Positions 3,757 through 52,915 of a DNA stretch of 64,000 nucleotides are shown here, one piece after another. The stretch is from Thermodesulfobacteriota bacterium. GTDB taxonomy: Bacteria; Desulfobacterota_D; UBA1144; Nemesobacterales; UBA2774. The DNA is taken from assembly GCA_965216785.1 (NCBI GenBank), contig OZ244197.1, forward strand, positions 374,828-438,827. The letters run 5' to 3'. The translations under genes were made by a program, and so were the position numbers. Every line of letters begins with the position of its first letter. Position 1 is the stretch's first letter. Under the pieces are notes generated by a model, which saw nothing but the letters and a program-made list of their open reading frames with translations, made no database searches and was not told the origin of the DNA.

Positions 3757-5361
3757 ATGCCTAAACTAACTATAGACGGAAAGGAATTAGAGGTTGAAGA
3801 CGGCCTGAATCTGATTGAGGCCGCCTCGCGAATCGGGGTGGAAATACCCCATTTTTGCTATCATCCCGCGCTTAGCGTAGTGGCGCAGTGCAGACAATGC
3901 TTGGTAGAGGTGGAAGGTGTGCCTAAGGTAATGCCCGCCTGTAATACTTACGTGAGAGAAGGGCTTATAGTTAAGACAAATTCAGAGCGTGCCGTAGAGG
4001 CCAGAAAGGCAACAGTTGAATTTACACTTATCAACCACCCGCTCGACTGTCCGATCTGCGATAAAGGCGGTGAATGCCCGCTTCAGATGACCACAGTCTC
4101 ACACGGACCCGGTTACAGCCGCTTTGAAGGCCCTGAGGAAAAGAAGGTAAGACAGAAATATTACCTGAGCGATAAAATTATATATGACCCCAACCGCTGC
4201 ATTATGTGTACAAGGTGCGTAAGGTTTACGGATGAGGTGACACAAACGGGCGAGCTTGGATATGAGGGAAGAGGATTCAGGAAGAAAATCGTGGTTTTCC
4301 CCGGAAAGAATCTGGATAACGAGCTTTCCGGAAACGTTACCGACCTTTGCCCCGTGGGCGCGCTGCTTAATAAAGATACGCTTCATAAGGAGCGAGTCTG
4401 GTATTGGAAATTCACGGATACTGTGTGCTCGCTTTGTAGTAACGGCTGCAACATAACAGTCGGAGTAGACCCGAGAAAGGGAAAAGTCGCCAGAGTGAGA
4501 CCTAGAACGAATACGGATGTTAACGACTACTGGATATGCGATAGGGGCCGCTATGAGTGGACAGATATACAGGACGCGGATAAACGCCTTAAGGACCCTA
4601 TTATAAGAAGGGGCGAGGGGTATGAGATAACGGATTGGGAAGAGGCGTTAAGCTTCACGGCTGAAAGGCTTGTTGAGGAAAGTCGTAAGCCTCTGCAATC
4701 AATCGCATTTTTAACCTCGGCAGCATTAACCAACGAAGAGCTTTATCTGTTTAAAAAAATTGGAGAAACGCTGGGAAGCAATAATATCGCTTCTAGCATA
4801 GGCCTTATTAACGATAAAAAGACTTTTGGCCTGCTCAGCTCGGATCCCTACCCTAACAGCACGGGAGTGAAGGACCTGGGGTATCCATACGGTTCGAACA
4901 TGGTTTTTGAGGTCATAGAGTCAATTATGGAAGGCAAGATTAAATCCCTCTATACGGCCGGAATAGATATTTTTGATTTTGTGAAGCAAGAGGATAAGCC
5001 AAGGCTAAGTGACGCGCTATCCAGGCTCTCTTTATTCGTAGCTCAGGATGTAATGCTTACCGAGACGCTCAGACTTTCGCACGTGATACTCCCCGGAGCA
5101 AGCGCATATGAAAAAGACGGCACATTTACAAACGACAGGGGAAGGGTGCAGAGAGTAAGAAAGGCGATAACGCCTCCCGGCACCGCGAAAGCGGACTGGG
5201 AGATACTATCACTAATAGGAAAAGAGATCGACGAAACGCTATTTGGCTACAAAGACCCGGGAGACGTCATGGACTCTATTGCCAGCGAGTTTCCGGCATA
5301 CGGTGGTATATCCTACGATAATATCGGAATGCTCGGTATAATGAGATCGGGCCCGGCTTGA
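3757..5361 (+). CDS. nuoG: NADH-quinone oxidoreductase subunit G (75 kDa Fe-S subunit), short form (534 aa)
   Basis: N-terminal 2Fe-2S ferredoxin-like region (HFCYHP...CRQC), then Cys clusters HPLDCPICDKGGECPLQ, CIMCTRCVRF, CPVGAL typical of NuoG/Nqo3. Confidence 0.85.
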   Translation: MPKLTIDGKELEVEDGLNLIEAASRIGVEIPHFCYHPALSVVAQCRQCLVEVEGVPKVMPACNTYVREGLIVKTNSERAVEARKATVEFTLINHPLDCPICDKGGECPLQMTTVSHGPGYSRFEGPEEKKVRQKYYLSDKIIYDPNRCIMCTRCVRFTDEVTQTGELGYEGRGFRKKIVVFPGKNLDNELSGNVTDLCPVGALLNKDTLHKERVWYWKFTDTVCSLCSNGCNITVGVDPRKGKVARVRPRTNTDVNDYWICDRGRYEWTDIQDADKRLKDPIIRRGEGYEITDWEEALSFTAERLVEESRKPLQSIAFLTSAALTNEELYLFKKIGETLGSNNIASSIGLINDKKTFGLLSSDPYPNSTGVKDLGYPYGSNMVFEVIESIMEGKIKSLYTAGIDIFDFVKQEDKPRLSDALSRLSLFVAQDVMLTETLRLSHVILPGASAYEKDGTFTNDRGRVQRVRKAITPPGTAKADWEILSLIGKEIDETLFGYKDPGDVMDSIASEFPAYGGISYDNIGMLGIMRSGPA

Positions 5362-5377
5362 GGAATAAAAACTACAC

Positions 5378-6442
5378 ATGATTTATGCAGAACTGGGATT
5401 TACGCTCTTAAAAATTGCCCTTCTTTTATTCGTAGTGCTTACGCTCGTAGCGTACCTGACGCTTGCGGAGAGACGCGTGAGCGCGTTTATACAGGACAGG
5501 CTGGGCCCGAACCGAGTGGGCCCGTTCGGCTTTCTGCAGCCGCTTGCAGACGGTATCAAATTTATATTTAAAGAAGATATAGTCCCGAAAGAGGCAAACA
5601 GACCTCTATTTATAGTGGCGCCCGCCTTTGCATTGGTTACAGCGCTTATAGCCCTTGCAGTAGTGCCGATCGGAAGGGGTTTTGAAACAGACGTATTCGG
5701 CCTGCTACAGGAGCCTCTGTTTGTGAAGCTTCAGATTGCGGACTTAAACGTAGGTGTGCTTTACGTGCTCGCTATCGGGTCTTTGAGTGTATATGGAGTT
5801 GTGCTCGGAGGCTGGGCGTCAAACAGTAAATACTCTTTTCTCGGAGGACTCAGGGGCGCGGCGCAAATGATAAGCTATGAGCTTGCTATGGGTATATCCA
5901 TACTGGGCGTTATTGCGTGGACAGGGTCACTCAGGCTTCAAGATATAATAGAAGCTCAGTCACATTACTGGTTTATATTCCCTCAGATACTTGGCGGCAT
6001 AGTATTCATAATAGCCGCGTTTGCGGAGACAAACAGGCTGCCGTTCGATATGCCCGAAGCAGAGCCCGAGATTGTGGCAGGCTATCACACGGAGTACAGC
6101 AGTATGAAATTTGCCATGTTCTTTATGGCAGAGTACACGCACATGATTGTGGTGTCGTGCCTCGTAGTGGCGCTCTTTTTCGGCGGGTGGTACCCGCTTC
6201 CCTGGGGAGGCTGGTTCGGAATAGATATAGATACGTACTGGTATCTGCCGCCGCTCGTATTCGTAGGAAAGGTGCTCGCGTTCCTGTTCTTTTTCATCTG
6301 GGTAAGGTTCACCCTGCCCCGCTTCCGCTATGATCAGGTGATGAACCTCGGTTGGAAAGTACTCTTCCCCATAGCCATACTGAACATCATCGTGATCAGT
6401 ATAGCCATCCTGGTGCTTCAGCACTATGGGTATCTTAGCTGA
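5378..6442 (+). CDS. nuoH: NADH-quinone oxidoreductase subunit H
   Basis: Polytopic membrane protein, 354 aa, 16 bp after nuoG; overall pattern fits NuoH/ND1 (YLTLAERRVSAFIQDRLGPNRVGPFG). Confidence 0.9.
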   Translation: MIYAELGFTLLKIALLLFVVLTLVAYLTLAERRVSAFIQDRLGPNRVGPFGFLQPLADGIKFIFKEDIVPKEANRPLFIVAPAFALVTALIALAVVPIGRGFETDVFGLLQEPLFVKLQIADLNVGVLYVLAIGSLSVYGVVLGGWASNSKYSFLGGLRGAAQMISYELAMGISILGVIAWTGSLRLQDIIEAQSHYWFIFPQILGGIVFIIAAFAETNRLPFDMPEAEPEIVAGYHTEYSSMKFAMFFMAEYTHMIVVSCLVVALFFGGWYPLPWGGWFGIDIDTYWYLPPLVFVGKVLAFLFFFIWVRFTLPRFRYDQVMNLGWKVLFPIAILNIIVISIAILVLQHYGYLS

Positions 6443-29020: not shown

Positions 29021-32000
29021 TTAATTCGTTTCTATTGTGGGCCCTCCTGTGAGCGCCCTTTTGGCCAGCTCCCTGATTACAGAGATTAAATGACTTATCG
29101 ATATAGAGTTCTGTCTGGGATCGGCCTGTATATTCAGGTTTTTGAAACCCAATATTGAGTTTGAAATATTAAACTCTTTAAACGTTATAACACCGTCATT
29201 AATATAACCAGAAATATCCCCTTTATCATAACCCCTGGATGAGCCGAGTATAAGCCTCTCTCTGGCGCCCAGCTTATCCAGTAGAGCCTCGCCTACCTTT
29301 CTCTGCTCTTTCGGTGAATTGGTTGCCCAGAATTTAAAGGGGCCGTCTATAGTATTTAAATCGCCGCCTTCCCCAGTGATCCAGGCAAGGCCGTTCACCC
29401 TTCCCGTTATGTAGTCTTTTTCGGATGAAATGCTTTTTGATATCGCCTCTAGACTGATCTCGTCGAATAAAAAAGAAATATTGTAGTTACCGTTTCCCTG
29501 AAAATAGTAGATACCGGCTCCGTATAAACCACCTCTATAAATCTTGGATGTGAGTTTTTTCAGGTTTATTTCACCTCTGTCCACTTCGAGCTGGCAGTCG
29601 ATGTCCTCGATTTTAATTATGCCGTAGTTAAGCTCGCCGATTTTCAGATAATCTGAGTCTTGAGATGTGTCAAAATCCTTTACGGAGCGGAGGAATTTTT
29701 TATATATGGATTTATTGAGTTTGAGTTGATCCCCCATGAAAGAGCTAAGAGGGTTTTCGGAATCGGCATCGTCCTTTATTGTGATAGTACCGTAAACCTC
29801 TTTTATTCTAAGCTCGGTACCCGAGAGCTTCCCTGTATATGCCCCGCGGAGAACCCTGAGCCTGCCGCCCCATGTTTGGTTAGGATAGAAGAGGTTGTAT
29901 AACACCAGCTCAAGATCGGCTTGCCCCTGTGTCTTGGCATTTGCCGCAGACTCAGGCAAAAAGGGCCGCAAGACATTCATTGCAACCGGTATTTGAATAC
30001 CCGGTATACTGAGCTCCAGCTGCCTTTCTTCATTAAGTGAATTTGTCATTTTCCCGGTAAATCCTAGCTCCATTGAGTCCTTACCCACTATAAACCCCTT
30101 TTCTATAAATAAGGTTTCACCCACTGTCTTTGCGTATAGCTCACCTCTATAGGTATAGCTTGTACCGTTATTAGTAAGACTTATGCCGTTTGCCGTAAGT
30201 TTGCCGCTACCCTCGGGCAGAGAGTTTTGAGGCAAAAGTCCCGTAAAATTAAAATTAGTCTTTGCTATATTCGCGCTCATACCGCCTGTAGAGAGAGAGG
30301 CTCCGCTGAGCTCGATGTCGGTGTCGATCTTAACACGGGGCCCTGTGGTATCGACGTCAATCTTGCCGGCAAGCGCTCCGTTTGAAAACTCGCCTGTAAT
30401 ATTGTCCAGGACAAGACCGGTTTCATTTGGCGTTACCAAGACCTTAAGATCTTGGATTGGCTGAGATAGCACCTCGAGCTTTGCGGCTTCGACGCGGCCT
30501 TCCCAGTCAATTGCACCCGAGTTGGGATCGTTTATTGTGAAGTCGCCCGAGATAGTATTTGAGGTAACTTTTCCATCAAGACCCGTGAAGATACTTTCCT
30601 TAAATTTAGACAGGAACGGGTAGCCGCCCTGATCTCCCATACGGAGCGTCAGGTCGTCCGTCTCGAACCGCCCGATCGCGCCTACATCGGCTTTAACTTT
30701 GCTTAGCTCGATGAAGTTGCCTAGATATTTATAATCCCACTCGACACTCGGGAACTCTATTGCTTTAAATCTGCCGCCCTGCCCCTTAACGTGGCCTGAA
30801 AACCCGTCTCTCCCGCTGTTTTCTATACTGAAGCTTTCGTTAAACTCAGACAGCGAAATGTCTTTGCCGAGAACCTCAAAGTTACTTCCTGTAGATGCCA
30901 TATTGATAGACCAGTCACTTCCAAGGGTAAGTGAAAACGAGAGCTTTTTTACCCTGCCGTTTTTAACTAGATAATCTCCGAATGTAAGACTCTCATAACG
31001 TAGCCCCTCGTTTTCAATCGTTATAGTGTCTCTATACACTCCTGCGGAAGCCTCGGTCTTATCTTCAGATAGAAATTTAAATGCGAGATTTTCTACAGAC
31101 TCTACCTTCGATAGCTTAAACGCTCTGCCTTTACTCAGGCTCAGGATAACGTCCCCAGCTGTAAAGGATATATCCGCATCGTAGTCACCTGAGCCGCCGC
31201 CGAAATTTGCAGTCGCCGTCAGAGCAGTGCCCTCGATGTCGAATGGAATGACGCTTTTGGGGGTTTCTTTCAAATTTAAATTCTGCCCGGTGAGAAGACC
31301 TTTGAGCTTAAAGCCGCCGCCGCTTAAGTCAAAACCCATTGATCCCGAGAGCACACCGTCCATAAAGCTCCCTTTAAGAGATGAAAGAGAGATATCGGTT
31401 TTACTCCAGTTTTCGGTTGCGGAAATTTTTACATCCGATGAAATATCTGCTATTGCTCCTGTCTTTACCCAGTTGAATGTATCCGCCGCGCACTTTCCGG
31501 TTGAAATTATAGGGAAGCTATCACCTATTGTGAGAGTCTGGTTAATTCTTAAATTACAGTTGAGCCCGGATAGTTCAAGATCTTCTTCAGTCTTTTTATA
31601 GTTAAGATCACTGGTGAGAACTTCACCTTTTATAGAGAATTTTCCTTTTTTGCCGGAACCGCTGATTGTTACATTCTGGGCTGTCGCACTCCCTGAGATC
31701 TCATCCTGCTCTAAACTCGGCAGTAAATTCTTGAGCGCGCTCAGGTCTTTAGCTTCGGCGGATCCGTTGATATTGATTATCACATCCTCTTCTTTGACAT
31801 CGGCGCTTCCTGTGAAGCTGCCCTCCATGAGTCCGTTTATGCTCAGATCGAGTTTTTCAAGAGCGGCGGTTTGTAGAGACGGGTTATATTGCAGATCATA
31901 GTCGATCATAAGCGCGGATTCTGCCGAGTCCGCCCTTTTATCCAGGGGGTTTACGCTCATCAGTCCGTATGCATGTAATACATCCGTCAATTCAAAATTT

Positions 32001-32722
32001 ATTCGCGCGTTTGCCTCCAGAGTTGAATCTTGGTTATTCAAAAGACTCTTATTCCCTAGTGCTAAGTCTCTCGTATTTATATCCAATAGTCCTGTTGTTA
32101 AATCAGTCTTTGATTGTACTTTACCTTCAATATCAAATTTACGACCTAAAGCACTAATATCACCGATAAAGTCAACTTCGCTTGACTGCTTTTCGTTATT
32201 ACTGTCGATGCCGATAGCTAGTGATTTTGAGTAGAGTGTGAGATCGGGGCTTATCTGACAATGAGCGTCCGTGATTGTAACTCCTTGAATTACAACCCGA
32301 GAAGGTCTTTCTTTATCGTCTTTATCGCTTTTAATCAGCTCAAGGAGATTTTGTATATTGTCCCGAGTTGCCTGAAGATTCGGGTCCTCAACAATAACCT
32401 CATTAATAATCAATCTCTGCTCTAAAAGAGAAGAGATGATAGCGGGGTCTACTGTAATTCTTTTTACTTCGGCGATCTTAACATTATTTTGTAAAGGGTC
32501 CGTGATCGTAAGTCCGCTCAATCTGAGGTTGAACAGGGGATCTATACCGATCTCTTTAAATTCAATAGAATAGCCGAGCTCTTTGGATAATTTCTCAATA
32601 TATCCAGGCGCTTCTCCACTGAGCTTTCTGTCTAATATAATGTTAACGGATATTAATGCTGCTAGGATTAAAACGGCAGCAATAACAAGAATTTTCAGGA
32701 ACCCGTGTCTCGAAAGGGTCAT
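29021..32722 (-). CDS. AsmA/TamB/YdbH-like large envelope protein
   Basis: 1233 aa; N-terminal TM anchor (FLKILVIAAVLILAALISVNIIL) then a very long beta-rich, low-hydrophobicity region typical of AsmA-like proteins. Confidence 0.75.
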   Translation of the reverse strand: MTLSRHGFLKILVIAAVLILAALISVNIILDRKLSGEAPGYIEKLSKELGYSIEFKEIGIDPLFNLRLSGLTITDPLQNNVKIAEVKRITVDPAIISSLLEQRLIINEVIVEDPNLQATRDNIQNLLELIKSDKDDKERPSRVVIQGVTITDAHCQISPDLTLYSKSLAIGIDSNNEKQSSEVDFIGDISALGRKFDIEGKVQSKTDLTTGLLDINTRDLALGNKSLLNNQDSTLEANARINFELTDVLHAYGLMSVNPLDKRADSAESALMIDYDLQYNPSLQTAALEKLDLSINGLMEGSFTGSADVKEEDVIININGSAEAKDLSALKNLLPSLEQDEISGSATAQNVTISGSGKKGKFSIKGEVLTSDLNYKKTEEDLELSGLNCNLRINQTLTIGDSFPIISTGKCAADTFNWVKTGAIADISSDVKISATENWSKTDISLSSLKGSFMDGVLSGSMGFDLSGGGFKLKGLLTGQNLNLKETPKSVIPFDIEGTALTATANFGGGSGDYDADISFTAGDVILSLSKGRAFKLSKVESVENLAFKFLSEDKTEASAGVYRDTITIENEGLRYESLTFGDYLVKNGRVKKLSFSLTLGSDWSINMASTGSNFEVLGKDISLSEFNESFSIENSGRDGFSGHVKGQGGRFKAIEFPSVEWDYKYLGNFIELSKVKADVGAIGRFETDDLTLRMGDQGGYPFLSKFKESIFTGLDGKVTSNTISGDFTINDPNSGAIDWEGRVEAAKLEVLSQPIQDLKVLVTPNETGLVLDNITGEFSNGALAGKIDVDTTGPRVKIDTDIELSGASLSTGGMSANIAKTNFNFTGLLPQNSLPEGSGKLTANGISLTNNGTSYTYRGELYAKTVGETLFIEKGFIVGKDSMELGFTGKMTNSLNEERQLELSIPGIQIPVAMNVLRPFLPESAANAKTQGQADLELVLYNLFYPNQTWGGRLRVLRGAYTGKLSGTELRIKEVYGTITIKDDADSENPLSSFMGDQLKLNKSIYKKFLRSVKDFDTSQDSDYLKIGELNYGIIKIEDIDCQLEVDRGEINLKKLTSKIYRGGLYGAGIYYFQGNGNYNISFLFDEISLEAISKSISSEKDYITGRVNGLAWITGEGGDLNTIDGPFKFWATNSPKEQRKVGEALLDKLGARERLILGSSRGYDKGDISGYINDGVITFKEFNISNSILGFKNLNIQADPRQNSISISHLISVIRELAKRALTGGPTIETN

Positions 32723-33401: not shown

Positions 33402-34202
33402 ATGCCCTCATCTATGATAAGAAAGATAAACGGACTGCTCAAGAGTGAGAGCCTGGGGAAAGTCATACATTATTTTGACGAGGTTGATTCAACAAACGAT
33501 ACTCTTTACGAGCTTGCGTCAAAAGGCGCTTCTGAGGGTACCGCGGTTATAGCAGACGCACAAACCCGTGGAAAGGGTAGACTGGGCAGAACCTGGATAT
33601 CGCCCGGCGGGCATAATCTATATTTATCCGTACTCTTAAGGCCCGGGATGGGAGCCACCGAAGCTGCACTCCTGACTCTGGTTGCTTCAATAGCCGTATA
33701 CGAGTGTTTAAAAAAAACCGGCATTCATAACGGGGCTATAAAATGGCCAAACGATATCCTGATCGACAAGAAAAAAATAGCGGGCGTACTAACGGAGATG
33801 CAACCAAAAGGCGATAAAGCGGATTTTGTAGTTGTGGGTATAGGGGTGAATGTGAATATGTCCAGAGCTGTTATTAACAGAGAAATGGACGACTTTGCCA
33901 GACATGTTACCTCGGTTAGCGAGAATTTGGGCAGGGAAGTGGACCGGGCAAAACTTGCTGCCGATTTACTTAAGGAACTTGAAGATTGGTATAGCACAAT
34001 GAGACTGCGGGGAAAACCCGCTATTTTGAAGGAATGGATGGATAGATGGGGCGGCCTAAACCAGAATGTACGTGTAAGAATTGAGGGTCAGGAAGAATTT
34101 CAAGGAACAGCCCAAGGAATAGATGAAAACGGCCATTTATTGGTTCAAAGAGAAAACGGCGAAACAGTAGAAGTAATAACGGGTGATATATCTATTATTT
34201 AG
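33402..34202 (+). CDS. birA: biotin--[acetyl-CoA-carboxylase] ligase (no N-terminal HTH domain)
   Basis: 266 aa; BirA catalytic motifs (QTRGKGRLGRTWISP, KWPNDIL, KIAGVLTE). Confidence 0.85.
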   Translation: MPSSMIRKINGLLKSESLGKVIHYFDEVDSTNDTLYELASKGASEGTAVIADAQTRGKGRLGRTWISPGGHNLYLSVLLRPGMGATEAALLTLVASIAVYECLKKTGIHNGAIKWPNDILIDKKKIAGVLTEMQPKGDKADFVVVGIGVNVNMSRAVINREMDDFARHVTSVSENLGREVDRAKLAADLLKELEDWYSTMRLRGKPAILKEWMDRWGGLNQNVRVRIEGQEEFQGTAQGIDENGHLLVQRENGETVEVITGDISII

Positions 34203-34548
34203 CCCTGAAACCAGACATTTCTTCTCTCATATTCTGCATCAGCTCTGTCCACTGATGAACTAATGAAAAATCATTTTCGGGAAGAAGTTTCCTTATCACT
34301 ATCCCACTTTCTTTAACTTCTACCCTGCAGTCCTTATATCTTTTGGATAGTATTTCGGCGAATTTATATAGCTTACTTACCGCCCCGGGATCGTTACCAA
34401 CAAATTTGGAGACAAGAACAACTTCCTGATCGAAACCTTCAAATATGAGATTCCAAAGGCTTGAGCTTGCCTCCATCGCAAAAGAAAGATCAATCGAATC
34501 AGACTGACTGACATCTTTTTCCATATTCACCTGGAGTGACTGCTCCAC
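34195..34548 (-). CDS. hypothetical protein
   Basis: 117 aa complete ORF immediately downstream of the TPR gene; 3' end overlaps the birA stop convergently by 8 bp. Confidence 0.45.
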   Translation of the reverse strand: MEQSLQVNMEKDVSQSDSIDLSFAMEASSSLWNLIFEGFDQEVVLVSKFVGNDPGAVSKLYKFAEILSKRYKDCRVEVKESGIVIRKLLPENDFSLVHQWTELMQNMREEMSGFRAK

Positions 34549-34576
34549 ACAGTCACCTAATTAGACCATATATAAC

Positions 34577-35584
34577 TTATCCGCCTCCGAGCGCCGCAAT
34601 CCTTTGCTTGGCGGTGTCCCCATATCCTTTATATCTATCCTGTCCGAGTGAGATCTCGAGAAACTTTTTGTAGTTAGCAATTGCTTCAGATCTCTTGTTT
34701 TGCTTCTCGTAACCCTGTGCTAAGAAGAAGTAGGCCTCAGGGGTATTGGGATTTAGTGAAATCGCCTTTTGTTCACTCGAGACAGTATTGGCGAATTGTT
34801 TCATATAGAAGTAAGTAATACCAAGATTCATGTACGCCGGGGCATAGTTAGGGTTAAGCTCAATTGCCTTTTGGAACTGATTTACGGCTTTTTGATAATA
34901 GCCCTGGTAGTTGAGCGCCGTTCCAAGATAGTTGTGAAGCTGGGCGGATGGAGCTATCTCTACAGCCTTTTTATACTGTGCCGCGGCCTGATTGAAAGAG
35001 CGTCTTTTCTGATAGTAGGCATTACCAAGACCTATGTACGCGGGAACGTATTTGGGATTGAGCTCGATTGCCTTTCTGATCTCCGGAGCGTTAGGGTTTC
35101 CGCCGCTTGCGGCCCAGAGTATGTAATAGGCTTCAGCGTTATTGGGGTCCTTAGCTAGAATGCCTCTCGCTGCCGCGATAGCCTCTTTCTCACGGCTCAA
35201 ATGGTAATAGCTATAAGCAAGAGCAACCTGAGTCGCCTCTAGATCGGGACCGAGTTTAAGGGCCTTTTCCATATTTTTATATGAATCGTTATAGTATTTC
35301 TCATAATCGTCTTTTATCAGGTATCTGTAAAAACCCATGAAGGAATAAACTTCGGCAAGCCCGGCGTATGCCGGAGCATAATTCGCGTCTATAGCGATAG
35401 CTTTATTATATGTCGCTATTGCTTGCTCAAACCCCTCAGGCGTAAACTTCATAAATTCGGCTTTTCCCTGCTTATACAACCCGGCTGCACCGGCTGCATC
35501 TTGGGCAATTGCAGTGTTAGCGTCTAACCCCGCAACTGTAAAAGTTATAGAAAGTAAAACCAAGCTTAAAATCAAACGCTTCAT
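34577..35584 (-). CDS. secreted tetratricopeptide-repeat protein
   Basis: Start moved to ATG 35584 (MKRLILSLVLLSITFTVAG, AGGAGGG upstream); repeated TPR-like units (AIELNPNYAPAY..., ...LGNAYY...). Confidence 0.75.
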   Translation of the reverse strand: MKRLILSLVLLSITFTVAGLDANTAIAQDAAGAAGLYKQGKAEFMKFTPEGFEQAIATYNKAIAIDANYAPAYAGLAEVYSFMGFYRYLIKDDYEKYYNDSYKNMEKALKLGPDLEATQVALAYSYYHLSREKEAIAAARGILAKDPNNAEAYYILWAASGGNPNAPEIRKAIELNPKYVPAYIGLGNAYYQKRRSFNQAAAQYKKAVEIAPSAQLHNYLGTALNYQGYYQKAVNQFQKAIELNPNYAPAYMNLGITYFYMKQFANTVSSEQKAISLNPNTPEAYFFLAQGYEKQNKRSEAIANYKKFLEISLGQDRYKGYGDTAKQRIAALGGG

Positions 35585-35631
35585 AACTCCCTCCTTGTAA
35601 AGTATTGTGCCTATAATGATTGTATCCGGTA

Positions 35632-36162
35632 TCAATACCCTTCGAGTATATATTTAACTATCTCTTTAGCCAAACCTTCATAAATATCCTTTGCCAAAAA
35701 GCCCATAGAGCTAAACCCGTTTACTTCTCCAGAGGATATTTCATCGCCGGTAGCCTTATTAACCAAGGCTAACTGGACTGTTACCGAAACCTCTCCGAAT
35801 TTTACTCCGCCGCCTTCATAAGAAATATCTGTGCTCGGTCTGTATTCACTTACCTCGCCTAAAACTACTATAGTATCCTCTGCAGGAATATTTTCAATTG
35901 CCCCAAACTCCACTTCTTTGAATTTATCCTTCGTAGCAAGCAGCGCTGCCGACTCTGCCGGGATTTTCGATAGCGCCTGTTCTGGAAAATCGACTATTTC
36001 AGTTACAAACTTATCGAACTGTACGGCCTGGAAACTGCTGAGCTTTTCTTTAGAAGGCTTAAAGTAAGATGTTGTTTTAATGCTCGCGCAGCCACTAAAC
36101 ATCAGAGCCAAAAAGAACAGCGAACATGCGGCATAGTATGAGCGGTAATTTCTATCTTTCAT
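35632..36162 (-). CDS. hypothetical lipoprotein
   Basis: Start moved to ATG 36162 (MKDRNYRSYYAACSLFFLALMFSGCAS, AAGGAGGA RBS upstream); lipobox Cys. Confidence 0.55.
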   Translation of the reverse strand: MKDRNYRSYYAACSLFFLALMFSGCASIKTTSYFKPSKEKLSSFQAVQFDKFVTEIVDFPEQALSKIPAESAALLATKDKFKEVEFGAIENIPAEDTIVVLGEVSEYRPSTDISYEGGGVKFGEVSVTVQLALVNKATGDEISSGEVNGFSSMGFLAKDIYEGLAKEIVKYILEGY

Positions 36163-36276
36163 AATTTCGTGCTCCTCCTTATAAGACAAGTAGTATAAAA
36201 TAGCATACTTCTTCTACTTGATAAACATCAAATCTTAATATTCTGTTATCACAAATGCGCTACGTGAAAAATTTAC

Positions 36277-36444: not shown

Positions 36445-36460
36445 TGGCACGTGGCTTGCA
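36445..36460 (+). promoter_or_regulatory. sigma-54 (RpoN) promoter, -24/-12 elements TGGCACG-N4-TTGCA
   Basis: Sequence TGGCACGTGGCTTGCA matches the sigma-54 consensus exactly in the GG-N10-GC core; about 43 bp upstream of pilin ATG 36503. Confidence 0.6.
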
Positions 36461-36502: not shown

Positions 36503-37102
36503 ATGTTAAGGAATATACTGAGAAAGAAAAAAGGCGAGAAAGGGTTTACCCTTATCGAGCTTTTGGTTGTTGCAGCGATCATCGGCATCCTGCTCGCAAT
36601 CGCTATCCCTAACCTTATAAAGGCAAGAATATCCGCAAACGAGGCAAACGCAAGAAAGGCCTTGCAGACCCTTAGAGACGCGGAAGGGGAGTATTTCGAG
36701 CAAGATCTTAACGATGATGGTGAGAGAAACTACACCGGATTTATTGGGGATCTCAGCACTGCTGAATCACTCCGTAATCCGGAAGGAACAAGTGATGAAG
36801 AGGACGCACTCATAGATTCAAGCTTTGAGGGTGCGGACGATGGAGAAGATCCCGCTGCGGCAGGCTGCGCGGACTCAAAAGCCGGGTACTGCATAGGCTG
36901 GGATGCCGCTACCATCGAGGCAGCTGCAGGTAACCTTGATGATTTCGGATGGGAAGCTTCTATGACAAGTTTCCGTAAGACAGGTAGAAAAGACTTCGCG
37001 GTTTACGGAGACGGCGTTATAAGGTGCACAGTTACCGGAGCCACCAACTCAGGCGATCCTGGTGACTTTAATGCCGATCGTACAACCGGCGCTTGCGACT
37101 AA
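36503..37102 (+). CDS. type IV pilin (PilA-like prepilin)
   Basis: 199 aa; basic leader ending KG then FTLIELLVVAAIIGILLAIAIPNL (prepilin peptidase site, Glu at +5); C-terminal Cys residues; GGAGG RBS 8 nt upstream. Confidence 0.85.
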   Translation: MLRNILRKKKGEKGFTLIELLVVAAIIGILLAIAIPNLIKARISANEANARKALQTLRDAEGEYFEQDLNDDGERNYTGFIGDLSTAESLRNPEGTSDEEDALIDSSFEGADDGEDPAAAGCADSKAGYCIGWDAATIEAAAGNLDDFGWEASMTSFRKTGRKDFAVYGDGVIRCTVTGATNSGDPGDFNADRTTGACD

Positions 37103-37156
37103 TAATTTTAAGAAAAAGTTAGTTCAATGTAAAGAGTACAAAATGTTTACTATAAA

Positions 37157-37181
37157 ACAGCGGGGTTAGCCCCGCTGTTTT
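37157..37181 (+). terminator. intrinsic (Rho-independent) terminator after pilin 1
   Basis: Perfect hairpin ACAGCGGGG-TTAG-CCCCGCTGT followed by TTT and preceded by AAAA, 55 nt after the pilin 1 stop. Confidence 0.7.
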
Positions 37182-37302
37182 ATCATCGCCCAATTGGTAC
37201 ACAAAGTAGAAATTACTACTTTGATCACTTGCTTTATCAAATAGAATTTCCTGTACGCATACTGCACAATTAAATTGTAATTACGAGTAGGAGCATACTA
37301 AA

Positions 37303-37899
37303 ATGATACAACCGGGCAAAATAAAATTTCAAAACGGATTTACACTGATAGAGTTGCTCGTTGTTGCGGCTATTATAGGCATTCTACTTGCCATTGCTAT
37401 TCCAAATCTCTTAAAAGCCCGAATTTCCTCAAACGAAGTGAATGCGCGAAAAGCGCTGCAAACCTTAAAAGATGCAGAGTATGAGTATTTTGAGCAGGAT
37501 CTGAATGATGACGGTGAGAGAAATTTTACAAATTTCATAGGGACTCTCGGTACACCAGGAACACTCCGCGACCCCTCAGGAACTAATGACGAAGAAGACT
37601 CGCTGATTGACAATACCTTTGAGAAGGCGGTAATAAACGACGGTAGTCCTGCAAGTTCCGCAAACTGCGTAGACTCAAAGGCCGGTTACTGCATCGCATG
37701 GAGCAGCGACGTTGAAACCGACGATTTGACCCTAGTAGCAGACTTCGGATGGGAAGCCTCCATGACGAATGCAAGGGTTAACGGGAGAAAAGACTTTTCC
37801 GCTTTCGCAGATAAAGTTATAAAATGCACCGTAACAACCCAGAGCAAGGGGCAGGCCGGGACGTTTGAATCCGGGCGTAGTGACTCCGCTTGTGAGTGA
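37303..37899 (+). CDS. type IV pilin (PilA-like prepilin), paralog 2
   Basis: 198 aa; leader MIQPGKIKFQNG then FTLIELLVVAAIIGILLAIAIPNL; shares CxDSKAGYCI and DFGWEASMT motifs with pilin 1. Confidence 0.85.
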   Translation: MIQPGKIKFQNGFTLIELLVVAAIIGILLAIAIPNLLKARISSNEVNARKALQTLKDAEYEYFEQDLNDDGERNFTNFIGTLGTPGTLRDPSGTNDEEDSLIDNTFEKAVINDGSPASSANCVDSKAGYCIAWSSDVETDDLTLVADFGWEASMTNARVNGRKDFSAFADKVIKCTVTTQSKGQAGTFESGRSDSACE

Positions 37900-38005
37900 T
37901 AAGCTTATATTCCTCAAATTAGAATTATCAAGCCCACAATCAACCTAATTATCCGAGAGATATTGCCTCTAAACACCGATTAACATATATTTTAGATATC
38001 CGGTT

Positions 38006-38935
38006 ATGTCAGAAACTATTCTCCAAGTAAATGAGCTGGTTAAAAACTTTAAGACAGGGTTCTTTGGAAAAGAAGCCAAGGTTCTAAAAGGGGTTTCATT
38101 CTCTGTCGAAAGCGGGGAGATATATGGCTTTGTCGGGCCGAACGGCGCCGGAAAAACCACTACCTTTAAATGCATCCTGGGGTTTGCGCAGAAATCTGGC
38201 GGTAACATCAGCCTGATGGGCGAAAGTAACGGTAACGTCGACATAAAAGCCCGGATTGGGTACTTGCCCGAGAACCCCTACTTTTACGACTACTTAACGG
38301 GCGAAGAGCTGCTCCACTACATGGGAGAGCTGCACGGTATAAAACAAAAGACGCTTAAGGATAGAGTGGATTTTCTATTATCGAAAGTCAATATGAGCCA
38401 CGCCCGAAGTCTACAGCTCAGAAAGTACTCCAAGGGGATGCTCCAGAGGATTGGAGTCGCTCAGGCGCTCATAAACGACCCGGAATTTATCATCCTGGAC
38501 GAGCCTATGAGCGGACTTGACCCTATAGGTAGAAGAGAGATTAAAGACTTGATACTGGAGAAGAAAGCGAAAGGGAAAACGATACTTCTCAGCTCGCATA
38601 TGCTAGCTGACGTAGAAGCGCTCTGTGACAGAGTAGCGCTGATAATGAACGGCAGGGTTGTTAGGACAGGCACCATCGGTGAGCTACTAAACGAGATACA
38701 CACAGATTACGAGCTCTTTCTCGAAGGATCGAGAGACGATGTCAGAGAGCACGTAAAAGACCTGAATGTTGAGCTAGAGGAAAGAGCCGGCTTCTTGGTG
38801 CTCAAGTTTGATGAGGATATAAAGACTAGGGTTTTTGAAGCTGTAATGAAATCCTCCTCAGAGATTGTCTCACTTCATCCAATGAGAAAATCGCTGGAAG
38901 GACTATTTGTAGAAGAGGCTAACAAAAATGAATAG
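38006..38935 (+). CDS. ABC transporter ATP-binding protein (ABC-2 type)
   Basis: 309 aa; Walker A GPNGAGKTT, signature YSKGMLQRIG, Walker B IILDEP. Confidence 0.9.
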   Translation: MSETILQVNELVKNFKTGFFGKEAKVLKGVSFSVESGEIYGFVGPNGAGKTTTFKCILGFAQKSGGNISLMGESNGNVDIKARIGYLPENPYFYDYLTGEELLHYMGELHGIKQKTLKDRVDFLLSKVNMSHARSLQLRKYSKGMLQRIGVAQALINDPEFIILDEPMSGLDPIGRREIKDLILEKKAKGKTILLSSHMLADVEALCDRVALIMNGRVVRTGTIGELLNEIHTDYELFLEGSRDDVREHVKDLNVELEERAGFLVLKFDEDIKTRVFEAVMKSSSEIVSLHPMRKSLEGLFVEEANKNE

Positions 38936-39731
38936 AGTATTTAGCGTAGCGCGCAACACATTCATTGAAGCCATAAGAGATAGAGTCCTCTACAGCCTGG
39001 TCGTTTTTGCTATACTGATGATTCTAAGCTCACTTATCATAGCCGCCATTTCCGGAGAGCAGTACAATAAAATTGTAAAAGACTTGGGACTCACAGCTAT
39101 TTCAATAATAGGCATCATGCTGTCCGTATTTCTGGGCATGGGTCTTGTTTATAAAGAGATAGAGAAAAAAACAGTCTATAACATCTTCTCAAAACCGATT
39201 AAGCGATACGAATTTATTCTCGGCAAGTATTTAGGCCTGGCTTTTACACTACTTCTAATTACTATTGGGATGGCAATTATACTTTTCCTCTTGGTTCTAT
39301 ATACGGAGCTCAGATATCAGGGGCTTATAGAGTTTTATTACGGGGGTCAGCATTTCAGCGAATTTTTTAACGCCATATATTTTCAGTATCTGGAATTCTT
39401 AATTATTATCGGCATCGCTCTTATATTCTCTAGTTTCACAAGCCCTATACTGAGCGTTTTATTCACATTTTTACTATTCGCGATAGGACGCTTTTCAGGC
39501 GATATAAGACTATTTGCAGAGGAGATAAAAAACCCGGTGAGCGCCGTTTTCGCCGAGGTGATTTATACGGTTATACCCAATCTTGAGAAGTTTAACGCAA
39601 GGAGTGAAGCCGTATACGGCGGCAGTTTAAACTGGGAGCTAATAATTTATACGACCGTCTATGCAATCATTTATACGATTGCGCTCCTATTGCTTTCCAT
39701 GGTCATTTTTGAAAAAAAGGAATTTAAGTAA
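38928..39731 (+). CDS. ABC-2 family transporter permease
   Basis: 267 aa polytopic membrane protein; start overlaps the ATPase stop by 8 bp. Confidence 0.8.
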   Translation: MNRVFSVARNTFIEAIRDRVLYSLVVFAILMILSSLIIAAISGEQYNKIVKDLGLTAISIIGIMLSVFLGMGLVYKEIEKKTVYNIFSKPIKRYEFILGKYLGLAFTLLLITIGMAIILFLLVLYTELRYQGLIEFYYGGQHFSEFFNAIYFQYLEFLIIIGIALIFSSFTSPILSVLFTFLLFAIGRFSGDIRLFAEEIKNPVSAVFAEVIYTVIPNLEKFNARSEAVYGGSLNWELIIYTTVYAIIYTIALLLLSMVIFEKKEFK

Positions 39732-39740
39732 CCAAGCCCC

Positions 39741-40811
39741 ATGTCAATTACAAAAAAACCCATAATCGGCCTAACTGTAATCTTAATATTGATATTAGCG
39801 TCTATACCGTTTCAAAATAAGATAGACGAAGCGCACGGTAAATTTAGCAGTATTGAGGGCAGCATATACCTATCGTCCTCTATGCTCGACAAGATGTCTC
39901 TGGGGTACCAGGAAATTCTAGCCGATGTATATTGGCTTCGGGCGCTTCAGTACTTTGGCGGTAAAGATATTGATGAGCAGGACCCCGAGCTTCTGTATCA
40001 TTATTTTAATATAATTACCGATCTTGACCCGAAATTTGTAAACGCTTACAGGTATGGCGGCGCATTTTTGGCGGAGCCTCCCCCGTATGGACTTGGGAAT
40101 TTTAAATTGGGTGTAAAGGTCTTTGAGAAAGGAAGAGAAAACAACCCCGATAATTTCAGACTGCCCCTTGAACAAGCATTCCTATATTACATATACCCGA
40201 AGAATTACGCTAAAGCCGCTGAGCTTTTCGAAGAGGCCGGAGCTAAACCCGGACTATCGCCATTCAGAAAGGCATCCATTAACGGCATGGCCGCCGCCGC
40301 TCACGCACATGGTGGAGACAGAAAAAATTCCAGGAAAATTTGGGAAACTATCTATGAAACGAGCCCGAGCGAAGGCAGGAGAAATTTCGCACTCAGAAAC
40401 TTAAAAGAGATACAAACAATGGATATTGAGGACAATTTAACACTAGCTTTAAAAGAGTACAAGAAGCGTTTCAAGAAACTCCCGGAAGGGGTGGAGGAAA
40501 TTGTCGATACCGGGATTATTGAATCGGTACCCGCCTCCCCTCTTGATGGACAGTTTATAATCGCGGCCCAAATCGAAGCTGTGAAAGACAGTGCTTTGGC
40601 AGAGAGCAACCTGAATCAAAGTCTTAGGTTCCTGAACGCAAAATCGAGAAGGCATATGAAGACTTTCGGCGAATACCCAAAAGATATAAATGAGCTCAGG
40701 GTGTATATTCAAGACTATACTACCAGCGATTTCCCAGCACACCCGCTTGGCGAGCCATATGACTACGATCCGGAAACAGGAAAAGTAACTTCTGGGGAAA
40801 TTACAAAGTAA
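39741..40811 (+). CDS. membrane-anchored hypothetical protein, helical repeat-like (possible ABC transporter accessory)
   Basis: 356 aa; N-terminal TM anchor (IIGLTVILILILASI); starts 9 bp after the permease. Confidence 0.55.
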   Translation: MSITKKPIIGLTVILILILASIPFQNKIDEAHGKFSSIEGSIYLSSSMLDKMSLGYQEILADVYWLRALQYFGGKDIDEQDPELLYHYFNIITDLDPKFVNAYRYGGAFLAEPPPYGLGNFKLGVKVFEKGRENNPDNFRLPLEQAFLYYIYPKNYAKAAELFEEAGAKPGLSPFRKASINGMAAAAHAHGGDRKNSRKIWETIYETSPSEGRRNFALRNLKEIQTMDIEDNLTLALKEYKKRFKKLPEGVEEIVDTGIIESVPASPLDGQFIIAAQIEAVKDSALAESNLNQSLRFLNAKSRRHMKTFGEYPKDINELRVYIQDYTTSDFPAHPLGEPYDYDPETGKVTSGEITK

Positions 40812-50567: not shown

Positions 50568-51689
50568 CTAGGATTCGTTTCTAAACGTGAGTATTACGCC
50601 TTTATCCTTAGCCTCTTTGGCAAGCTCAGAGGGAGGGGGAGGAAGCGGAGCTGATTTATAGACCGCGGTTACGCAGTATTCATCAAACACCGGGTTCCCC
50701 GATGAGTTGCTTACCCTAACGTCGTAGATTTTACCGTCTTTGCCTACTTTGAACAGCACATCGGTCTCAAGCCCGCCGTCCGTAGGTACGCTGGGGGGGA
50801 TTCTCCAGTTTCGGCTGATTTTTCTATGTACCTGCTGACTGTAGAGGTTAATAATAACGGGGCTTACAGACGAGCCGCCGCCTCCGCCGCCGGTACTGCT
50901 CTTTTCGGTACTCGCTTCGAGTCCCGCATCTTCGGCATCGGCCATGGCAAGCTTCTGCTCCTCGCCCATGGGCTCCTCAGGCTCCTGCGGCTCTTCACTG
51001 CTTCCAAGCTGATCGAGTACCTTTTGCCTTTGAATGTCCTTAAGTACCTGGCTTCTCTTTTTATCTAAAGTTTTCTTTTCTGTTTTTTTCTTCTCTTCTT
51101 TTTTAGGTTTGGGTTTTTCCGTAGGTTTTGGTTTCTCGGCTACTTTTTTCTCTTCCTTCTTTTCTACTTTTTTAGGTTCTTCTTTCTTTTTTTCTTCCTT
51201 CTTTTCAGGCTCGAGGGGAATTACCTCTTTCTTCTCAGGCTCTTTCTTTACAACTTCTTTTGGCTTTTCCTCTTTTTTAGGCTCCTCTTTGGGCTTCTCA
51301 GGCTCTTTTTTAACCTCTTGTTTCTTGGGCTCCTCTTTTTTTGGTTCTTCCTTCTTTACCTCTTTTATTTCGGGCTCTTTTTTAGGCTCTTCTTTTTTTG
51401 GAGGCTCGGGAGGGGCTTTTACCTCTTTTTCCGGTGGCTTGGGAGGGGCGGGCTTCTTCTCTACCTTTTTAGGCTGAGTTTTCTTAACAGGCGGGCGACC
51501 ATCACCACCTCCGCCTGTATCCAGAGATGATATCGATACCTGTATAGGCCCGCTCGGGCCGCTGAACTGCGAAGCTCCCCGGAATCCCCAAAATAGTATC
51601 AATGCAATAATTGTAGCGTGGAGCGCGATTGAGAAAACTCCGCCCCAAAACGATGTTCCCTTTGAAGGGTCATTACCTTTTTCTTTCAT
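50568..51689 (-). CDS. TonB/TolA family energy-transducer protein with long Lys/Glu/Pro-rich linker
   Basis: 373 aa; N-terminal TM, about 150 aa of (E/K)(E/K)PKK-type repeats, C-terminal TonB-like domain; directly downstream of the ExbB/ExbD-like pair. Confidence 0.8.
   Translation of the reverse strand: MKEKGNDPSKGTSFWGGVFSIALHATIIALILFWGFRGASQFSGPSGPIQVSISSLDTGGGGDGRPPVKKTQPKKVEKKPAPPKPPEKEVKAPPEPPKKEEPKKEPEIKEVKKEEPKKEEPKKQEVKKEPEKPKEEPKKEEKPKEVVKKEPEKKEVIPLEPEKKEEKKKEEPKKVEKKEEKKVAEKPKPTEKPKPKKEEKKKTEKKTLDKKRSQVLKDIQRQKVLDQLGSSEEPQEPEEPMGEEQKLAMADAEDAGLEASTEKSSTGGGGGGSSVSPVIINLYSQQVHRKISRNWRIPPSVPTDGGLETDVLFKVGKDGKIYDVRVSNSSGNPVFDEYCVTAVYKSAPLPPPPSELAKEAKDKGVILTFRNES
51040..51480 (-). 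repeat. in-frame low-complexity coding repeats (Lys/Glu/Pro-rich linker of the TonB/TolA-like protein)
   Basis: Reiterated aaggaagaaccaaaaaaa-type units encoding (E/K)(E/K)PKK repeats; also produces a spurious antisense ORF (51034..51477). Confidence 0.8.
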
Positions 51690-51709
51690 AATCCGCCGCT
51701 TACCTCTTA

Positions 51710-52147
51710 CTACTGTTTAGTCACGGGCTCTGTGATTAGACCAAGGTTCGTAACCCCGGCATTTCTAATCTCAGACATCACCTCTACAACTGTGCCGTAA
51801 GGAACAGAGGTGTCAGCCCTTAAAAAAACATTTTCCTTCTCTATGTCTTTTCCCTTTGAGCTCATAAGCACCCTGACTTCAACTCTTAGCTCATCGAGCG
51901 TATACTGCTTTTTCTCTATAAATATCTCACCGTCACCGTTTAAAGTAACAACAACCTTCTTCTCCCGGTCTATGGAGGGCATGGACTTGGACTGGGTTTT
52001 GGGCAGCTTAACATCCACACCCTGATACAGAATGGGGGTCGTTACCATGAATATCACAAGGAGGACGAGCATGACGTCTACAAACGGCGTTACGTTTATT
52101 TCGGCCATCACTGTGCGGCCGCCCTGTTTCGGAGTCTGCATTCCCAT
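51710..52147 (-). CDS. biopolymer transport protein ExbD/TolR
   Basis: 145 aa; single TM (INVTPFVDVMLVLLVIFMV) and ExbD/TolR periplasmic domain. Confidence 0.85.
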   Translation of the reverse strand: MGMQTPKQGGRTVMAEINVTPFVDVMLVLLVIFMVTTPILYQGVDVKLPKTQSKSMPSIDREKKVVVTLNGDGEIFIEKKQYTLDELRVEVRVLMSSKGKDIEKENVFLRADTSVPYGTVVEVMSEIRNAGVTNLGLITEPVTKQ

Positions 52148-52156
52148 ATTGCTCTA

Positions 52157-52915
52157 TTACACCTTCTTTATATATCTATCCACTATATTTAAGAACTCGG
52201 AGGAAAAATGCTCCATTTCAACATCTATGCGCTTTACGCGGCTTACGAAGTAGTTATACGCAATAACGGCGGGTATGGCCGCTGCGAGCCCGATAGCGGT
52301 CGCGATCAGGGCCTCGGCTATACCGGGGGCGACTGCCTGCAGTGTGGGGACGCCTTCACTTCCCGCAAGCCCGATGAAGGAAGTCATGATACCCCAAACC
52401 GTGCCAAATAGCCCTATAAACGGTGCCGCGCTTCCGGTGGTAGCAAGAAAAGTAAGCGAGCTTTCGAGTTTAGAGGTTTCTGAAGACATAGTCCTGTTCA
52501 GAGCCCTCTCTACAAGCTCGATCATACCAAGCTCGCCCGACATCATATCGGCGCTTGTCCCGCCCTCGGGTTTTTGTCCCGAGCTGCTTGCCCTTTTGAT
52601 TTTAAGTATCTCCGTGTAGCCCGCTCTGAACACTTCGGCAATCGGCCCGCCGATGTGCTTAGTCGAGGAATAGAGGTTCCCAAAATTCCCGCTCGCATTA
52701 TAGAGATCGAGAAACTTGTCCGAGCTCCGGGTCGCTTTTCTGAGCACGAAGTACTTTGAGAACATAATGGTCCAGCATACGACCGACATAAATAAGAGAA
52801 TAAGAAGAACCGCTTTAACCACAGGGCCCGCGTGAGAGACGAGGGTCATAATTTCTACCTGCTCCGCTGTGGTCTCTGCCTGCGCCTGCAACACGAAAGA
52901 TATCCAGTTTGTCAT
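52157..52915 (-). CDS. MotA/TolQ/ExbB proton-channel protein
   Basis: 252 aa; conserved TolQ/ExbB C-terminal TM region (GLFGTVWGIM..., PGIAEALIATAIGLAAAIPAVIAYN). Confidence 0.85.
   Translation of the reverse strand: MTNWISFVLQAQAETTAEQVEIMTLVSHAGPVVKAVLLILLFMSVVCWTIMFSKYFVLRKATRSSDKFLDLYNASGNFGNLYSSTKHIGGPIAEVFRAGYTEILKIKRASSSGQKPEGGTSADMMSGELGMIELVERALNRTMSSETSKLESSLTFLATTGSAAPFIGLFGTVWGIMTSFIGLAGSEGVPTLQAVAPGIAEALIATAIGLAAAIPAVIAYNYFVSRVKRIDVEMEHFSSEFLNIVDRYIKKV

Follow-up and report, generated by a model that had tools for sequence, protein, structure and literature searches.

In Myxococcus xanthus, PilG, PilH and PilI have reportedly been known since 1998, from the work of Wu and colleagues on pilH, to be required for pili. 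The corresponding genes (MXAN_5782-5780) belong with the pilin gene to a single operon, pilA-pilG-pilH-pilI (PMC3546991). Deletion of pilGHI abolishes social (S) motility and exopolysaccharide (EPS) (PMC5544727). The three proteins have also been described as required for the translocation of pilin across the inner membrane, and a Walker A allele of pilB, pilB(WA), suppresses the defect in EPS seen with the pilG, pilH and pilI deletions, as it does that of a pilA deletion (PMC3724824). In addition, PilGHI-like matches linked to pil clusters have been found in other former Deltaproteobacteria (PMC6060248). The subject here is a set of three genes at 38006-40811 of a 64-kb window, that is, the whole stretch of 64,000 nucleotides analysed from a Thermodesulfobacteriota bacterium (assembly GCA_965216785.1, contig OZ244197.1, positions 374,828 to 438,827 of the forward strand). 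These genes encode an ATP-binding cassette (ABC) ATPase, an ABC-2 permease and a 356-aa protein, and we put at roughly 0.7 the probability that they are the counterpart of PilH-PilI-PilG, an ABC system that is accessory to type IVa pili and accompanies the pilin gene.

In the table of open reading frames (ORFs) made for the window, five consecutive genes on the plus strand run from a first pilin to the 356-aa protein, and the last three of them, written H, I and G below, form the triad:

36503-37102, plus strand: pilin 1, 199 aa, a prepilin with the cleavage motif G|FTLIELL and 4 Cys.
37303-37899, plus strand: pilin 2, a 198-aa prepilin and paralogue of pilin 1.
37900-38005, plus strand: spacer of 106 bp between pilin 2 and the ATPase gene, without a terminator.
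38006-38935, plus strand: pilH-like ABC ATPase, 309 aa.
38928-39731, plus strand: pilI-like ABC-2 permease, 267 aa, of family PF12679.
39741-40811, plus strand: pilG-like accessory protein, 356 aa, with a hydrophobic N-terminus, an array resembling tetratricopeptide repeats (TPRs) and two pilin-head-like modules.

The stop of the ATPase gene and the start of the permease gene overlap by 8 bp (ATGAATAG), and 9 bp separate the permease stop from the start of the 356-aa ORF; these coordinates agree with the overlap and the gap given in an earlier, sequence-only reading of this DNA.

The comparison with Myxococcus was based on a reference locus reached via the pilin. The M. xanthus PilA sequence was checked residue by residue against the structure 8tj2, and it led to a 96% identical cluster (P0121) from Myxococcus sp. 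AB036A (locus L003). In this locus and in that of Corallococcus, pilS-pilR-pilA is followed by genes for proteins of 303, 326 and 255 aa and then by pilD-pilS2-pilR2-pilMNOPQ, and the published order pilA-pilG-pilH-pilI-pilD (PMC3546991, PMC6060248) agrees with both. In both loci, Pfam finds no family in the 303-aa protein, ABC_tran in the 326-aa protein and ABC2_membrane_2 in the 255-aa protein. The sequence-only reading had proposed a homology search against PilH, PilI and PilG, and when the window proteins were compared by BLASTP with those of the Myxococcus locus, all three matched: the ATPase is 39% identical to PilH over 306 aa (E 7e-77), including the C-terminal region past the nucleotide-binding part; the permease is 27% identical to PilI from end to end (E 5e-31); and the 356-aa protein is 24% identical to PilG over 284 aa (E 1e-23), with the motifs ADxYWxxxxQ and TDLDPxF in common. 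PilG itself matched no family in Pfam or NCBIfam. As judged from these alignments, the match of the three proteins is a specific homology that goes beyond the common ABC motifs, because PilG, which matches no curated family, is not a generic ABC part.

The likeness extends to the arrangement. Both the M. xanthus module, with its three homologous proteins, and the window triad lie directly 3' of a pilin gene on the same strand, and both PilG and the 356-aa protein combine a hydrophobic N-terminus, a TPR array and a pilin-like module. There are also clear differences: the order is H-I-G in the window versus G-H-I in M. xanthus; two pilin genes rather than one precede the triad; the PilG homologue of the window is 53 aa longer than Myxococcus PilG and has a second pilin-like module; and the identity between the two triads is low, at 24-39%. 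Moreover, unlike the M. xanthus module, the window triad has no adjacent pilD, pilS/R, pilBTC or pilMNOPQ; greA comes next, followed by carB, both in convergent orientation. The suggestion in the sequence-only reading that these genes form a pilus-associated module analogous to that of M. xanthus is thus borne out by the homology of three proteins and by the linkage to pilins, with the order H-I-G instead of G-H-I.

How far this linkage is conserved was determined from relatives of the 356-aa protein, of which there are 333 at E <= 0.001. An exhaustive search of clusters at 50% identity gave 2270 at E <= 1e-3 and 855 at E <= 1e-10. Most homologues are labelled ‘hypothetical’ or ‘TPR repeat protein’ and come from metagenome-assembled genomes (MAGs) called Deltaproteobacteria, Thermodesulfobacteriota or Desulfobacterota. 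The closest relatives are in Candidatus Dadabacteria MAGs (83% and 76% identity), so the DNA of the window belongs to a Dadabacteria-like organism. A further search, made with a cross-phylum alignment, mostly brought back close Dadabacteria-like proteins and only a few additional distant ones. Scanning with the family alignment, with one genome per species, returned 80 loci, in which phmmer comparisons with the Corallococcus pil proteins and the proteins of the window, along with the prepilin motif, were used to label the genes; the pilin counts include a looser six-frame scan, which covers pilins with the motif ‘GYTIIELL’ (L020 and L026).

In the Dadabacteria-like loci, the order is H-I-G in 31 complete triads out of 31, and of the 24 loci whose upstream flank reaches 2 kb or more, 23 have one or two pilin genes directly 5' of the triad, an adjacency that persists down to about 50% PilG identity. 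The conservation of pilins beside the ABC genes in relatives, which the sequence-only reading had named as a check, is therefore seen in all but one of the informative loci; that reading had held that it would fall if there were neither likeness to PilH and PilI beyond generic motifs nor conserved linkage to pilins, and both the likeness and the linkage were found. The common synteny of these loci consists of birA, orf117, a TPR protein gene and a lipoprotein gene, then the divergent pilin(s)-H-I-G, then the convergent greA-carB. Since the same gene order recurs in the Dadabacteria-like loci, the arrangement of pilin(s), ATPase, permease and 356-aa protein is not due to chance. One locus with this synteny (L038) has its ATPase, permease, PilG and carB genes each split into fragments; these breaks are most likely due to a frameshift-rich assembly rather than to gene decay.

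Outside this group, the triad is found in Acidobacteriota (several orders), Gemmatimonadota, WOR-3, Krumholzibacteriia, Myxococcota and unclassified MAGs. In these other phyla, the 40 complete triads have the order H-I-G (26), I-G-H (6) or G-H-I (8, mostly Myxococcota), to which one mixed-strand case can be added. The H, I and G genes are therefore a conserved unit across several phyla, and their order, which differs among phyla, is treated as a lineage trait and not as a property that defines the family. A pilin gene or another core gene of type IV pili lies within 8 kb in 22 of the 40 triads, and 13 have pilD as an immediate neighbour. In a Terriglobales contig (L085), for example, the order is pilin-H-I-G-methyltransferase-LolA-PilC-PilB, where the methyltransferase-like and LolA-family genes (4346-5611 of that contig) separate H-I-G from pilC-pilB. 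Overall, the commonest companions of the triad are pilin and prepilin peptidase genes, and the link to pili is frequent and not obligatory. In seven Acidobacteriota loci (L040, L045, L046, L050, L053, L057 and L068), there is no pilin or other pilus gene within 6-8 kb; in this subgroup, the target of H-I-G may be unlinked from it, or H-I-G may have some other role.

The ATPase belongs to ABC_tran (E 8.1e-28) and has all the expected motifs, namely Walker A, the Q-loop, the signature (YSKGM), Walker B and the H-loop. The permease, with 5-6 hydrophobic segments, belongs to ABC2_membrane_2 (PF12679, E 1.1e-9), which is also the family of Myxococcus PilI, and matched no equivalog in NCBIfam. Against solved structures, the permease sequence alone found no relative, and the profile of the PilI family found only NosY (7o0y, E 2.7e-6), over the N-terminal ~160 residues. 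Among solved prokaryotic ATPases, NosF is one of the best matches of the window ATPase (152 bits). The likeness of the permease and the ATPase to NosY and NosF is a distant one, at the level of the family.

Two other three-part systems deserve comparison. NosDFY uses an ABC-2 engine in which the cycle of ATP hydrolysis drives a periplasmic partner, with no solute being moved (mechanotransmission). In both NosD-NosF-NosY (PDB 7o0y), which assembles nitrous oxide reductase, and the triad, the ABC-2 engine has an accessory protein of its own in the periplasm; these accessory proteins are unrelated, NosD being a beta-helix protein and that of the triad being made of TPR and pilin-like modules. No nos genes were found near the triad among the flanking genes or by Pfam scans. 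GldA-GldF-GldG, the gliding-motility ABC transporter of Bacteroidota, is likewise an ABC-2 system of three parts with ties to a motility apparatus at the cell surface, and GldA is the best NCBIfam model for the ATPase, with a score (204 bits) far under the equivalog cutoff of 402.6; DrrA follows at 200 bits, which is also far under its cutoff. For the permease and the 356-aa protein, no match to the GldF or GldG models was found.

The 356-aa protein matched no family in Pfam or NCBIfam, and it has a single hydrophobic segment at its N-terminus (residues 7-25), which is preceded by lysines and followed by a conserved P-x-Q motif; the juxtamembrane pattern S-I/V-P-F-Q is conserved. The sequence-only reading had called it N-terminally anchored: the hydrophobic segment stands, and it may act either as an anchor or as a signal peptide cleaved at a possible ILA|S site. 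A confident AlphaFold model made with 48 sequences (predicted local distance difference test score, pLDDT, 88.5) has an N-terminal helix (7-31), an array of helical repeats (~57-244) and, at the C-terminus, two small alpha+beta units (~245-283 and ~284-350). Among solved structures, a cross-phylum profile of the PilG family matched proteins with TPRs (best E 9e-13), and Foldseek with the whole model returned generic TPR proteins only (E ~1e-3). A relationship to PilF was considered and set aside: PilF was among these generic TPR matches and was not specific.

The C-terminal units gave a different result. A profile of the C-terminal unit by itself, built from 32 sequences of several phyla, was compared with the PDB, and the major pseudopilins GspG, EpsG and PulG made up eight of its top nine matches (E 7.5e-5 to 9e-3); the match to the GspG type spans the pattern ‘alDmYklDn.rYP ... 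GYi.rlPkDPWG.eYqy’. Foldseek, too, ranked pilins first, without significance, and the Pfam model T2SSG did not match the PilG-like protein. This pilin-head-like module (40404-40808 of the window, residues 222-356) is present in two copies in Dadabacteria and in a Gemmatimonadota homologue (L042) and in one copy in Myxococcus and most Acidobacteriota; the second module therefore accounts for the ~50 extra residues of the Dadabacteria PilG. GspG, EpsG and PulG have a prepilin leader and a hydrophobic alpha1-N helix, which precedes the head, whereas the PilG modules have neither and form the C-terminal end of a TPR protein; for this reason they cannot polymerise in the manner of pilins. With moderate confidence, given the modest scores, the PilG family may be described as TPR proteins that end in pilin-head-like modules without the polymerising N-terminal helix. 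No mention of this combination was found in the literature examined.

The two pilins, which are 63% identical to each other with matching Cys positions, both contain the Pfam domain N_methyl (E 3.8e-9 for pilin 1 and 1.7e-8 for pilin 2), and their mature forms have 186-187 aa and 4 Cys. In NCBIfam, pilin 1 matched the prepilin N-terminal domain; its top match, typeIV_PilA_Myxo, is confined to the N-terminus and scores far under the cutoff. The likeness of pilin 1 to Myxococcus PilA is limited to the first ~63 aa.

Two further features upstream of pilin 2 bear on the transcription of these genes:

36445-36460, plus strand: candidate sigma-54-type -24/-12 promoter box, TGGCACgtggcTTGCA, 58 bp 5' of the start codon of pilin 1.
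37152-37183, plus strand: putative hairpin terminator of pilin 1, with a 14-bp stem, a 4-nt loop and a U-rich 3' side.

The box is the single perfect match in the window, and one match is within chance expectation. In about 20 Dadabacteria-like loci, the same sigma-54 box is found 57-61 bp before the first of the pilin genes, and it is this recurrence of both box and distance which argues that the box is probably functional. In many of these relatives (among loci L005-L038), a second box, TGGTAY-N5-TTGCW, precedes pilin 2; its counterpart in the window, at 37195-37210, is TGGTACacaaaGTAGA, in which the -12 element is degenerate. The RNA of the region 37100-37240 is predicted to fold at -41.3 kcal/mol (z -6.16), and none of 200 shuffled sequences folds as well, so that the hairpin after pilin 1 probably acts as a terminator. 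By contrast, the 106-nt spacer that separates pilin 2 from the ATPase gene folds no better than shuffled sequence (z +0.60), and no terminator-like site was found on its plus strand. The sequence-only reading was therefore right that a terminator is missing here, and read-through from pilin 2 into the ATPase gene is predicted.

The sigma-54 boxes, together with a terminator after pilin 1 and none after pilin 2, suggest two transcription units. Pilin 1 would be transcribed from the sigma-54 promoter up to its own terminator as a separate monocistronic transcript, which would probably be abundant. Pilin 2 would probably be co-transcribed with the three triad genes in a second, probably weaker unit, within which pilH and pilI would be translationally coupled. 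This division is predicted from the sequence signals alone.

What might such a module do? A PilH dimer would bind and hydrolyse ATP on the cytoplasmic side of a dimer of PilI. The work might then, as is the case in NosDFY, be passed to a periplasmic partner instead of, or besides, moving a solute. The partner would be PilG, whose TPR and pilin-like modules might bind the heads of pilins in or at the inner membrane, and the module could thereby help in a step between the insertion and processing of pilin and its hand-over to the assembly platform. An action on the pilin pool would fit the fact that the triad is tied to pilA and pilD more than to pilBTC or pilMNOPQ. Because NosY and NosF are relatives of the permease and the ATPase, a mechanotransmission model is a reasonable one for the triad, as an analogy and not as a result. 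The label ‘export module’, used in the sequence-only reading, is an assumption, the M. xanthus module itself not being known to have a substrate.

Several observations weigh against the assignment of the triad to type IVa pili, or against parts of it. Outside the Dadabacteria, about half of the triads lack a pilus gene within 8 kb; the neighbours of the Acidobacteriota triad L045, for instance, are hydantoinase A, a PAS-GAF-GGDEF protein and a TPR/PMT_2 protein. Within the window, no homologues of pilB, pilT, pilC, pilD, pilM-P, pilS or pilR were found, and the flanking genes, as identified by Pfam scan, are housekeeping genes only; the rest of the pilus machinery is assumed to be encoded elsewhere in the genome. 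The N-terminal helix is the sole part of the pilins that resembles Myxococcus PilA. Finally, the mechanism is an analogy with NosDFY, and the contact of PilG with pilin and with PilI is predicted only.

Other explanations can be considered, of which a true exporter survives best, although it is unlikely. PilH-PilI would carry a non-protein substrate through the inner membrane, for example a glycan, a lipid-linked sugar or another envelope component that modifies or stabilises the pilin or the pilus, with PilG as a periplasmic adaptor. The permease is of the ABC-2 class, many members of which export polysaccharides or lipids, and the strongest solved relatives of the ATPase by score are the lipid-transporting ABCA proteins. 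The loss of EPS in M. xanthus pilGHI mutants (PMC5544727) would also be in keeping with export; however, the suppression of this defect by the Walker A allele of pilB, as in the pilA deletion (PMC3724824), points to signalling by the pilus and not to direct export. Also against the exporter are the pilin-like modules on PilG and the identity of the conserved partners, which are pilin and pilD rather than sugar genes; neither in the window nor in the synteny conserved among Dadabacteria does the triad have a glycosyltransferase or polysaccharide gene as a companion.

A second, considerably less probable explanation is that the filament served by the pilins and the triad is a short pseudopilus or one of the secretion type, like those of type II secretion systems (T2SSs) or of competence, rather than a type IVa pilus on the surface. 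The closest sequence relative of the PilG modules is indeed the T2SS pseudopilin GspG, the window has no genes for retraction or assembly, and both the ComGC and GspG models match the pilins weakly. These last matches, however, are confined to the shared N-terminal helix and are far under the cutoffs, and the pilins, with their large mature size and 4 Cys, are unlike GspG. Moreover, in Myxococcus and many Acidobacteriota, the homologous ABC modules lie inside classical type IVa pilus clusters (PilB/T/C/M/N/O/P). The remaining explanation, a generic ABC-2 pump for efflux or immunity (drug, peptide or Na+) that lies beside the pilins by chance and resembles PilH and PilI at the family level only, could draw on the nearly equal GldA and DrrA scores of the ATPase and on the many Acidobacteriota triads that are not beside pilus genes, but it is highly improbable and already largely refuted by the specific PilG homology of the third gene and by the conserved linkage, the three genes occurring together across phyla, with pilins in 23 of the 24 informative Dadabacteria-like loci and pilD adjacent in 13 loci of other phyla.

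As for the surroundings of the pilins and the triad, three genes on the minus strand at 34195-36189 are divergent from the pilins and keep this place in nearly all Dadabacteria-like loci. They encode orf117, a TPR protein of 352 aa and a lipoprotein-like protein of 185 aa, the lipobox of which is ‘MFSGC’. The 352-aa protein (34577-35635) was considered as a possible pilotin of the PilF/PilW/Tgl type; its matches of this type are under cutoff and typical of any TPR protein. Farther away, a 1233-aa AsmA/YhdP-like protein is encoded on the minus strand at 29021-32722, and TonB and ExbB genes lie at 50568-52915; the presence of AsmA-like, TonB and ExbB genes indicates a diderm envelope. The other flanking genes are housekeeping genes, such as icd, argS, ruvABC and rho. 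In the literature, nothing useful was found on pili in Dadabacteria or on an ABC transporter adjacent to pilA in Geobacter.

To return to PilGHI, the window triad is a member of this known kind, in a new phylum, with a permuted gene order and a duplicated C-terminal module. It reveals no new kind of system; the added value lies in the cross-phylum picture, in which the full triad, including PilG, is kept beside pilins in an uncultivated phylum, in Acidobacteriota and in other phyla, and in a structural hypothesis. To our knowledge, PilGHI does not figure in the structural models of the pilus machine that are now available. The pilin-like modules on a TPR scaffold, together with a permease related to NosY, give a concrete form to the hypothesis of an ATP-driven handling of pilins in the periplasm. 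In practical terms, the relatives labelled ‘hypothetical’ or ‘TPR repeat’, and the adjacent ‘ABC-2 transporter’ genes, could now be annotated as pilus-associated.

A more far-reaching proposal, which is tentative and for which the odds are somewhat unfavourable, is that PilGHI is a widespread ‘pilin-handling’ machine of many phyla, in which a NosFY-like engine moves a TPR protein with pilin-mimic domains that acts on pilins in the membrane. The Dadabacteria triad travels only with pilin genes, which would fit an action on the pilin and not on the machine. If the proposal is correct, PilG would hold, sort or deliver membrane-embedded pilins to the assembly platform, and this would constitute a previously unrecognised, energy-dependent step in the biogenesis of type IV pili.

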